A DNA stretch of 64,000 nt. Origin: Laetmonice hystrix. Its lineage: Eukaryota. This document shows positions 52,501 to 55,500 of the stretch, piece after piece. A model generated the notes under the pieces. It had not been told where the DNA came from, did no database searches, and saw only the letters and a program-made list of their open reading frames with translations. The translations under genes and the position numbers were made by a program. Location: NCBI GenBank assembly GCA_965235115.1, contig OZ249436.1, positions 16,804,001 through 16,868,000 of the forward strand, given 5' to 3'. How positions within the stretch are numbered: the stretch's first letter is position 1; the number at the start of each line of letters is the position of its first letter.

Positions 52501-55500
52501 AAAAGGGGTTTAAAGGTAATCGATCACCCTACGGCCACGAGTTTTGTCAAAGCGGTGTCCCCATCTCCTACGAATCCGCATATTTCAAGCTTACCTGCAA
52601 ATCTATTCCACTGGACTGATAAAACATTCTGTCGTATCCATAACACGAGGCCAACCTCGGGACTGTTCGGGACAGATCCTCTCGGCCTCGCACGGCCGTC
52701 GCCATGTTGGACCTTCTTTTATCATGTGACACAACGTGGTCAAAATGGCGACGGCCGACACACCGACAAAGGTGAAAGACAAGCAGTGTCTGGCTTGTTT
52801 AAAAGCAGATCTCCGCTTGATACCTCTTACAAGTAGATTAGACGTCAGAGGAAATCTATTTAGGTCTCTAGCCCTATATAGATACTTTTTTTAGATGTTG
52901 ACATTCCTATTAGCATTGTTTATCGTCAAACGGAGGTCAACGTTCGTCCCACGGACGTGCTGTCTCACTCCTTCGGGCATATGACATCATTTCTTATGCC
53001 GATGCAAACTGGTAAAGTCGTATGATTTCATAAATATTGCAAAACTGAATGTGTCGCGGCTGCTGAGAACGATGGAGTCTGCAAATCTTCGGAAATTAGC
53101 CATCTTTCCCGAGGAACAATCCCGCGTTAGGCCGAATACCGACGATCTGTGAACTACTTTGCGCACTACGCGAGTTGTGATGTGCCCAAACCCGTGGAAT
53201 ATACACCATATCTCTACGGCTTGCGAGGTCCGAGACCACATCTAGAGAAGCGACCGGAAGTTGAGTCGAGGTTTTCCGAATGGTGCGCCCCCGTGACCGG
53301 GATGTTCCCAAGTCATGAGTGAGTCCCTCTGATTGGACCGTTGTTTTCCGTAGGGTACGCCCCCGTGACCGGGATGTTCCCAAGTCATGAGTGAGTCCCC
53401 TGATTGGACCGTTGTTTTCCGTAGGGTACGCCCCCGTGACCGGGATGTTCCCAAGTCATGAGTGAGTCCCTCTGATTGGACCGTTGTTTTCCGTAGGGTA
53501 CGCCCCCGTGACCGGGATGTTCCCAAGTCATGAGTGAGTCCCTCTGATTGGACCGTTGTTTTCCGTAGGGTACGCCCCCGTGACCGGGATGTTCCCAAGT
53601 CATGAGTGAGTCCCTCTGATTGGACCGTTGTTTTCCGTAGGGTACGCCCCCGTGACCGGGATGTTCCCAAGTCATGAGTGAGTCCCTCTGATTGGACCGT
53701 TGTTTTCCGTAGGGTACGCCCCCGTGACCGGGATGTTCCCAAGTCATGAGTGAGTCCCTCTGATTGGACGGTTGTTTTAGGTAGGGTACGCCCCCGTGAC
53801 CGGGATGTTCCCAAGTCATGAGTGAGTCCCCTGATTGGACCGTTGTTTTCCGTAGGGTACGCCCCCGTGCCCGGGATGTTCCCAAGTCATGAGTGAGTCC
53901 CCTGATTGGACCGTTGTTTTCCGTGGGGTACGCTCCCGTGACCGGGATGTTCCCAAGTCATGAGTGAGTCCCCTGATTGGACCGTTGTTTTCCGTGGGGT
54001 ACGCCCCCGTGACCGGGATGTTCCCAAGTCATGAGTGAGTCCCCTGATTGGACCGTTGTTTTCCGTAGGGTACGCCCCCGTGACCGGAATGTTCCCAAGT
54101 CATGAGTGAGTCCCCTGATTGGACCGTTGTTTTCCGTAGGGTACGCCCCCGTGACCGGGATGTTCCCAAGTCATGAGTGAGTCCCCTGATTGGACCGTTG
54201 TTTTCCGTAGGGTACGCCCCCGTGACCGGGATGTGTTCACGGTCCCGGAGCTGTACAGTTAACAGGGATGACGGGATATCTTCCGCCTTCGTCATCGCCC
54301 ACGAGATTGGTCACGTGTGAGTATCGTACCGACCGCCATGCACCGCGGCGTCCCTCTTTTCAATGTTACCCTTCACCTTTAGCTTTATGATAAGCCACAA
54401 GGCCCATATACGATAAAATAAATTTAATATGGACGTTATGTTCAGTGTTTGGATAACCTGGTGTTGTCAACCTTTAGTTAGCATGGTCATTATATTGTTA
54501 ATGAAATCTTTCACAATCAGGTCACTAATGTCAGTCCCCTGGTTGTTGAGAAGGGCATCACAGAGATTGCACATGTAACATTTCAGCGGCACTAAAGTTC
54601 ATTTCCCAATTTGCATTTTTTAAACTTCTCTTATCTATATCATATGTGGTTGTGTTTAGTATCATGCTGTTGGCTGTATGCCCTGACATAGTGTGTGTGA
54701 GGATAGTTCGTGTTTTGTCGCAGGATGGGGCTGCAGCATGACGGAGTGGGTAACGATTGTGAAGAGGACCCAGAGGATGGGAAGATCATGGCTGCCATGG
54801 TCCAATCCTCCTACGAACTCTTCTACTGGACTAGGTGCTCGAAAGAACGCCTCCTCAGATACATCGAGTATGTGGCACATTTCACCTTATCATAATCTGA
54901 TCATTTAAATTTAATATCTGAATCAATGTCAAATTTATACCTTTTGCAACCTGGTTCTTGGATAGCATAAAGCCTCGAGTTGGCGACTTTATATTTTTGA
55001 GTCACCTGAACGTCGTGTTTTATAATACAATAAGCGACTATAGCTACGTAAGTCTGCCTCCTGATCATACTATATATTTTTTTAATAACATTTAAATAAG
55101 ATACTTTTTCTAACCGGTCAGTCACTACCACTGCCTGGACAACGAGCCAAGTCGGAAACGGGAGTCGGACCTCGAGGAACCGTTCGGACAGAGTTGGAGT
55201 CTCGACGAGCAGTGTCGACAGGAGTTCGGGGCCGAGTTCAGATTCTGCGAGGCAGTGAGGAGTTACCAATTTATACACCTTACCCAGTCACCCCTACGTC
55301 ACCCCAAACCAAACACACACAAAAGAGTACCTTACATAGTCACCCCTTCCCCCCTACACCAACACACAAGTTCATTCGTAGGCCTACACTGTAATGGCCT
55401 ACACCAACACGTCATAACACCACGTCCTAGATCATGCGTAGGCCTATACTGTAACGGTATACACCAACACGTCATAACACCACGTCCTAGTCCATGCGTA

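Follow-up and report, generated by a model that had tools for sequence, protein, structure and literature searches.

Tandem arrays that repeat the 3′ end of an intron together with the 5′ start of the next exon, known as mirages, have been described in amphioxus genes for Adh3, the globins BflGb6 and BflGb9, troponin C, and PGBD5 (PMC3087553, PMC3902484). Their units measure about 10–160 bp (PMC3087553), and length polymorphism or somatic instability belongs to the features of the class. Mirages are reported to leave splicing undisturbed and to yield no aberrant mRNA, and it has been suggested that introns can be gained through them (PMC3087553, PMC3902484). Related cases are found in human genes. 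The insertion c.844_845ins68 in CBS duplicates a 68-bp stretch of the junction between intron 7 and exon 8, the distal copy is used, and the mRNA is normal; the accessible text terms the duplicated sites "donors", whereas the title of the Romano 2002 study it cites refers to a 3′ splice site (PMC2630376). Intron 7 of F7 contains a 37-bp VNTR whose identical pseudo-donors are described, in the part of the paper available, as functional but normally silent (PMC1557585). Meanwhile, exons 4a and 4b of OGDH are given in the accessible text as sterically enforced mutually exclusive exons (PMC7969005).

Here, we describe an acceptor-spanning minisatellite in a window of 64,000 nucleotides from the genome of Laetmonice hystrix, where it covers the boundary between intron 7 and exon 8 of an ADAMTS-like gene (53271–54234, plus strand). 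As in the accessible descriptions of amphioxus mirages, an intron's 3′ end is repeated in tandem together with the first part of the following exon, such arrays occur several times per gene, the AG is retained in many units though not in every one, and the inner units are homogenised while the boundary unit has diverged. The real exon 8 lies at the 3′ edge of the array, the unit of 71/72 bp falls within the published range, the AG is present in 10 of 13 decoy units, and the interior is concerted (97% matches, unit types in blocks) with a degenerate outer unit. The array is a further case of the class already known from lancelets. It differs from the amphioxus mirages, as far as their accessible descriptions go, in that its unit includes a donor giving an in-frame 37-nt exon, and in its host, L. 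hystrix, whose best relatives for this gene are found in Owenia, Tubulanus, and Capitella, which suggests an annelid or a related lophotrochozoan.

The array resembles the CBS insertion in duplicating an intron 7/exon 8 junction, but it has 14 copies instead of two, and no internal donor is mentioned in the accessible text on CBS (PMC2630376). It shares with the F7 VNTR a boundary-spanning repeat that contains pseudo-sites; as far as the available account of F7 goes, the donor and not the acceptor is repeated there, and the direct counterparts of F7 are the donor-type arrays of our window. Exons of the OGDH type, in the accessible description, are likewise frame-compatible alternatives whose neighbours are barred by a short donor-to-branch-point distance. 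They are, however, whole duplicated exons with diverged, conserved coding, whereas the mini-exons of the array consist of 24 nt of exon and 13 nt of intron, are near-identical, and are not excluded when they are not neighbours. A narrow open-access literature search that included annelids found no report matching this array; a paper on earthworm metallothionein (PMC12783039) had no bearing on it.

The ADAMTS gene and its array

Judged by its sequence, the host is an ADAMTS2/3/14-like (procollagen N-proteinase-type) gene on the plus strand, of which 20 exons were modelled (43525–63309) and which continues past the window. The exons join to 973 amino acids without a stop. Exon 7 (52292–52439, 148 nt) ends in phase 1; exon 8 (54211–54316, 106 nt) encodes a segment running from GYAPVTGMC to HEIGH, with the first two zinc-binding histidines and the catalytic glutamate; and exon 9 (54724–54867) encodes MGLQHD, with the third zinc-binding histidine. 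The HExxHxxGxxH signature of the M12B catalytic domain is present across exons 8 and 9 as HEIGHVMGLQHD. Compared with the PDB, exon 8 matched ADAMTS catalytic domains (E 4e-7), and GYAPVTGMC is common to the host gene and its relatives. The Pfam matches to Reprolysin were weak and below the cut-off, and a protein homologue search with exon 9 gave no match; a thrombospondin type 1 repeat (PF00090) exceeded the cut-off in exon 12, following the catalytic and disintegrin-like domains. The best relatives were proteins of Owenia, Tubulanus (ADAMTS3-like), and Capitella, followed by proteins named ADAMTS2, -3 or -14. Ten relatives were looked up: six were named ADAMTS2, -3 or -14(-like), three were unnamed, and one belonged to an ADAMTS18-like cluster.

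Contigs from three runs of one sample were aligned with the assembly. Between 54211 and 55360, they showed 11 haplotype substitutions, all intronic, with none in 383 exonic bp (P about 0.012), so that the canonical exons look constrained. Over 54130–55360, the contigs were DNA-like and contained no joints, and the last unit was the only one covered; since they behave as DNA, the absence of joints is uninformative on splicing.

Several other features of the gene were observed. The acceptor of exon 4 has two AG dinucleotides 4 nt apart (49683 and 49687, plus strand), of which only 49683 keeps the frame. Inside exon 19, at 62739–62918 (plus strand), an ACC microsatellite encodes a mucin-like stretch rich in Thr and Pro, and a second Thr-rich stretch lies in the last exon, at about 6600–6900 of the flanking stretch L009. 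In a late intron, an apparent gene is nested on the opposite strand (L009, about 4200–5080, minus strand), which we take, from a frame read by eye, to be BTB/KCTD-like.

The analysis with Tandem Repeats Finder gave the array (53271–54234) a period of 71, 13.5 copies, and 97% matches, an occurrence far beyond chance. Splitting the array into units yielded 13 decoy units followed by the real exon 8. Each unit of 71/72 bp consists of the final 47–48 nt of intron 7 and the initial 24 nt of exon 8, as the initial annotation had proposed for the exonic part, and the 34/35-nt spacers between the mini-exons agree with the 34–35 nt it had given. From 5′ to 3′, the start-to-start spacings are 72, 71, 72, 72, 72, 72, and 72 nt and then six times 71 nt; the unit types thus lie in blocks, the 72-nt type mostly 5′ and the 71-nt type 3′. 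The units also carry private substitutions, again in blocks, with private variants at 53856 and 54069 among them. The sequencing runs, all from the same single sample, point to a real array, since the unit contigs reached about 6.6 to 10 times the single-copy depth: a collapsed 72-nt unit contig had a depth of 297.5 against 45 for the adjacent single-copy contig in run X1, the unit contigs of run X2 reached 468–470 against about 47.5, and the collapsed unit contig of run X3 stood at 557 against 76. These collapsed contigs fit multiple copies and give no allele lengths.

The possibility of a transposed or dispersed element was rejected, because the 13 matches to the unit in the 627-Mb assembly, obtained with a search that skips very common words, all fell at the array locus. 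RNA structure as a selector of one copy was likewise rejected: the fold of the array (z −0.87) showed no pairing structure able to do this, and no inverted repeat was found inside the array, the sole one being weak and outside it.

Decoy splice sites and the mini-exon frame

The initial annotation held that each unit has the true acceptor, which proved wrong. Nine of the 13 decoys have exactly the true acceptor sequence, one reads AGGTAG (53785), two carry TGG, and the outermost unit (53271–53318, plus strand) has AAT instead of TAG, so that 10 of 13 keep the AG. Eight AG-intact copies lie at 53354–53892, as established by unit splitting and frame checks, with starts at 53354, 53425, 53497, 53569, 53641, 53713, 53785, and 53856. 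Then follow the two inactivated acceptors (53924–53997), whose change from TAG to TGG had been noticed before and was found again immediately before 53927 and 53998 (53924–53926 and 53995–53997). The last two mini-exons, at 54069–54105 and 54140–54176, are again AG-intact. In the unit with the altered acceptor TTTTAG/GTAG (53779–53784, plus strand), a new AG lies 4 nt upstream and is followed by GT, which makes it an out-of-frame or ratchet-like site.

Meanwhile, the donor-like CATGA/GTGAGT that had been reported in every unit is indeed present in 13 of 13, and an intact donor is expected at a unit identity of 97%. Counted post hoc, decoy acceptors are altered in 4 of 13 units and donors in 0 of 13. 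With splice matrices built on the small base of the window's 41 donors and 40 acceptors, the unit donor scored 4.79 bits, exceeding just 4 of the 41 true donors, and the real exon 8 donor was equally weak (4.84 bits). In the last unit, this cryptic GTGAGT (54177–54182) opens the 34-nt end of intron 7 (54177–54210), which holds the pyrimidine tract and the true acceptor. A candidate branch-point A, placed from the CTGA consensus, lies at 54189, 13 nt from the unit donor.

To see whether decoy splice sites erode systematically, splice-critical columns were compared with the others in 10 arrays, a set without the cadherin array of three decoys and without the short donor array of exon 13. Counted by units, which are not independent, the splice-critical columns differed from the consensus in 7.1% against 3.8% (permutation P 0.024); counted by distinct alleles, the values were 0.42 and 0.32 (P 0.18, not significant). 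The evidence for systematic erosion is equivocal.

The frame arithmetic of the initial annotation was recomputed and is correct. The 37-nt mini-exon enters in phase 1 and leaves in phase 2 like exon 8, both 37 and 106 being 1 mod 3, and when it is joined to exon 9 at 54724 the frame stays open through exon 10, in a product 69 nt shorter than the canonical one. All the other combinations examined contain a stop: a mini-exon followed by exon 8, two mini-exons in a row, and a decoy acceptor used without its donor, where reading past the unit donor meets an in-frame TGA at once.

The steric threshold between donor and branch point is given as about 50 nt in vertebrates in the accessible text of PMC7969005. 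Since the candidate branch A lies only 13 nt from the unit donor, neighbouring units should be unable to splice together, and the earlier claim of mutual exclusion holds for neighbours, whose spacers are 34/35 nt. Exclusion does not extend to non-neighbours. Between its donor and exon 8, the last unit has 34 nt, which makes it the sole copy that is unable to splice to exon 8; the second-last has 105 nt and the other eight AG-intact units have 318–820 nt, so that nine of the ten lie 105–820 nt from exon 8. The shortest of the 39 modelled introns has 118 nt, which exceeds the gap of the second-last unit. Skipping of exon 8 would therefore be forced on the last unit alone, or perhaps on the last two.

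Clusters of the Dscam type consist of mutually exclusive exons. The array offers frame-compatible alternatives as such clusters do. Its copies are, however, near-identical and have 24 exon-derived nucleotides where a cluster has whole homologous exons with diversified coding, and the steric mechanism excludes neighbours only, with no pairing structure to exclude all other members.

How often an internal donor arises by chance was estimated from the other acceptors of the window. An equally strong donor-like site was found at −47 to −12 in 6 of 38. Acceptor mirages were then simulated on these 38 acceptors, that of exon 8 being left out: a donor as strong was held by 319 of 1862 simulated mirages (17%), and in 80 of 1862 (4%) the resulting exon was also in frame and stop-free. 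With the strict motif GT[AG]AGT, 126 of 1862 had a donor and 30 of 1862 (about 1.6%) were in frame and stop-free. The probability of one in-frame case among the four acceptor mirages of the window is about 16% (6% with the strict motif), and comparable cases are expected many times per genome. The internal donor is within chance, and the in-frame feature is not clearly beyond it.

Possible explanations of the array

We put a probability of roughly three in four on the array being a neutral mirage minisatellite with decoys that, by analogy with the published cases, would be silent. The array would have been born by tandem duplication and expansion. Most likely, the intron already contained GTGAGT, 34 nt ahead of the acceptor, and the duplication would have placed an acceptor copy 37 nt before it, creating the look of a mini-exon. 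The spliceosome most likely picks the last acceptor by exon definition, the sole one opening the full 106-nt exon, and the array would be removed with intron 7. The alteration of four acceptors and no donors among the 13 decoys is expected if the decoys are disposable, and the same anatomy recurs without a usable donor at many other boundaries. Some points speak against neutrality: exon definition could also recognise the mini-exons, because the unit donor equals that of exon 8 (4.79 against 4.84 bits) and nine of the decoys share the exact acceptor of exon 8, and on the strict motif the in-frame coincidence amounts to about 1.6% per acceptor mirage. The in-frame mini-exon is nevertheless most likely a coincidence and not an off-switch of the enzyme.

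Leaky decoys could instead act as a poison cassette, their stop-bearing products being subject to nonsense-mediated decay, so that the length of the array would tune the ADAMTS dose as a cost or a rheostat. Part of the transcripts would then enter at an upstream acceptor, with or without its unit donor, and continue to exon 8, to a further unit, or straight through the donor. This is compatible with every route except the single mini-exon joined to exon 9 ending in a stop, and with nine decoys matching the true acceptor while four of 13 are weakened or dead. The excess in splice-critical columns counted by units points the same way, but it loses significance by alleles and its units are not independent. 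The published mirages, in the accessible parts of the reports, are also without aberrant mRNA (PMC3087553, PMC3902484), and the use of each inner decoy may be impeded by a U1 site that lies 13 nt away from the upstream branch point; we consider this explanation rather unlikely. An assembly artefact seems close to negligible. Near-identical tandem copies are prone to miscounting and no contig spans the whole stretch, but the raised depth of the unit contigs in three runs of one sample and the block-wise private substitutions both argue against it.

A regulated alternative exon, in which one mini-exon, most plausibly 54140–54176, replaces exon 8 to give a dead or dominant-negative ADAMTS, we regard as highly improbable. 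Its frame and open reading stand, its donor is as strong as that of exon 8, and the last unit, 34 nt away, is sterically unable to splice to exon 8, which means that any use of it yields exactly the in-frame product; the second-last unit may act likewise, since none of the 39 modelled introns is as short as its 105-nt gap. For such a function one copy would be enough, however, and the 13 near-identical copies add just routes to stop codons; the donor coincidence is within chance, and no pairing structure selects one copy. The protein itself argues against this explanation too. In a homologue model with pLDDT 86–93 over residues 221–250 and lower values at 211–220, the exon 8 segment forms the strand 223–228 and the active-site helix 234–245, and all 30 aligned sequences share Cys218, Cys224, His240, Glu241, and His244 without exception. 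The swap replaces 28 residues, which span the strand, the helix, and both invariant cysteines, with five. As these core elements are lost, the predicted product probably misfolds and is unlikely to be a stable enzyme that is dead yet intact. The full-length, catalytically dead isoform suggested earlier is in frame on paper and lacks HEIGH as stated, but its functional reading is unsupported. A narrow open-access literature search found no inactive spliced ADAMTS isoform. It is also very unlikely that the mirage was co-opted, with the last or perhaps the second-last unit serving as a regulated alternative to exon 8 that is sterically forced onto exon 9 and yields an inactive ADAMTS2/3-type protein, and with array length setting the share of message that goes to this form or to decay.

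As a neutral mirage, the array has little importance alone. It does offer a clean experiment of nature on the choice of the last among ten near-equal acceptors by the spliceosome, each with a donor 37 nt downstream, and it is a warning that false microexons will confront annotators of the L. hystrix genome. Actual use of the mini-exon would be a case of an exon born out of a junction repeat, with repeat length controlling a procollagen-processing protease.

Boundary-spanning arrays elsewhere in the genome

Tandem repeats make up 42% of the window. At least three in-register copies were found at 11 of 80 modelled boundaries (four acceptors and seven donors), the testable boundaries being those of the ADAMTS gene and of a cadherin-repeat gene on the minus strand. 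A twelfth row, the acceptor of cadherin exon 14, was dropped because the adjacent donor array accounts for five of its six matches. With mirages at roughly every seventh boundary of repeat-rich regions, the L. hystrix genome extends the class known from lancelets.

The cadherin-repeat gene (4121–20684, minus strand) has 21 exons in one open frame with Pfam support, and mirages were found at 8 of its 41 tested boundaries: the donors at 18640, 16795, 16385, 13592, and 11929 and the acceptors at 15006, 14206, and 5830. The gene runs upstream to about 27100 and downstream into the flanking stretches L011 and L012. Its 72-nt donor mirage at 12699–13654 (minus strand) has an acceptor-like site in the exon-derived part, 31 nt before the donor, which gives another apparent mini-exon, 31 nt long, whose frame does not match that of the 165-nt exon. 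In two other donor mirages (17872–18651 and 10739–11934, minus strand), the decoys carry a base other than G at −1 in 12 of 25 and 6 of 21 copies, a hint of decoy weakening that is non-significant by allele count. The donor of ADAMTS exon 20 also carries a mirage (63281–64000, plus strand, and about 230 nt into L009) with a 41-nt unit and about 20 decoys, the donor of exon 13 has three short irregular copies (59470–59540, plus strand), and another short donor array lies at about 6270–6490 of L009.

Beyond the window, 14 candidate arrays were picked heuristically; 12 were scanned and five had a fitting Pfam match. The zinc-binding exon (HEMGH) of an ADAM-family gene on contig C5 (L030:1585–2517, minus strand) has a Pfam-supported acceptor mirage with an 80-nt unit in 11.7 copies. 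The mirage takes in 51 nt of the exon, as far as HEM, and no unit donor exceeds 3.9 bits. Another M12B gene (L031, contig C12) has a 2-copy 84-nt acceptor duplication. Pfam also supports similar arrays at a CC2D2A-like exon on contig C2 and at further cadherin exons on contig C1. By inspection, a myosin exon on contig C18 (L038, about 2740–3189, minus strand) is preceded by a 61-nt acceptor array, whose decoys each read CAG/GTGGTG, a ratchet-point-like AG/GT.

The density of such arrays is patchy. They were present at 1 of 10 myosin-exon loci from about six genes, so that the mirage rate of the window is not typical, and the tandem-repeat fraction ranged from 0 to 0.45 across 20 stretches of 10 kb, four of which flank the window. 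The two genes together contain 23 arrays, of which 10 cross a splice boundary, whereas random seeding predicts 3.0 (P 2e-4), under a crude null that treats all unique intron bases alike and with two of the ten overlapping the exon by only 2–5 nt. This excess hints that arrays form at splice boundaries beyond random seeding and have a splicing- or boundary-linked origin.
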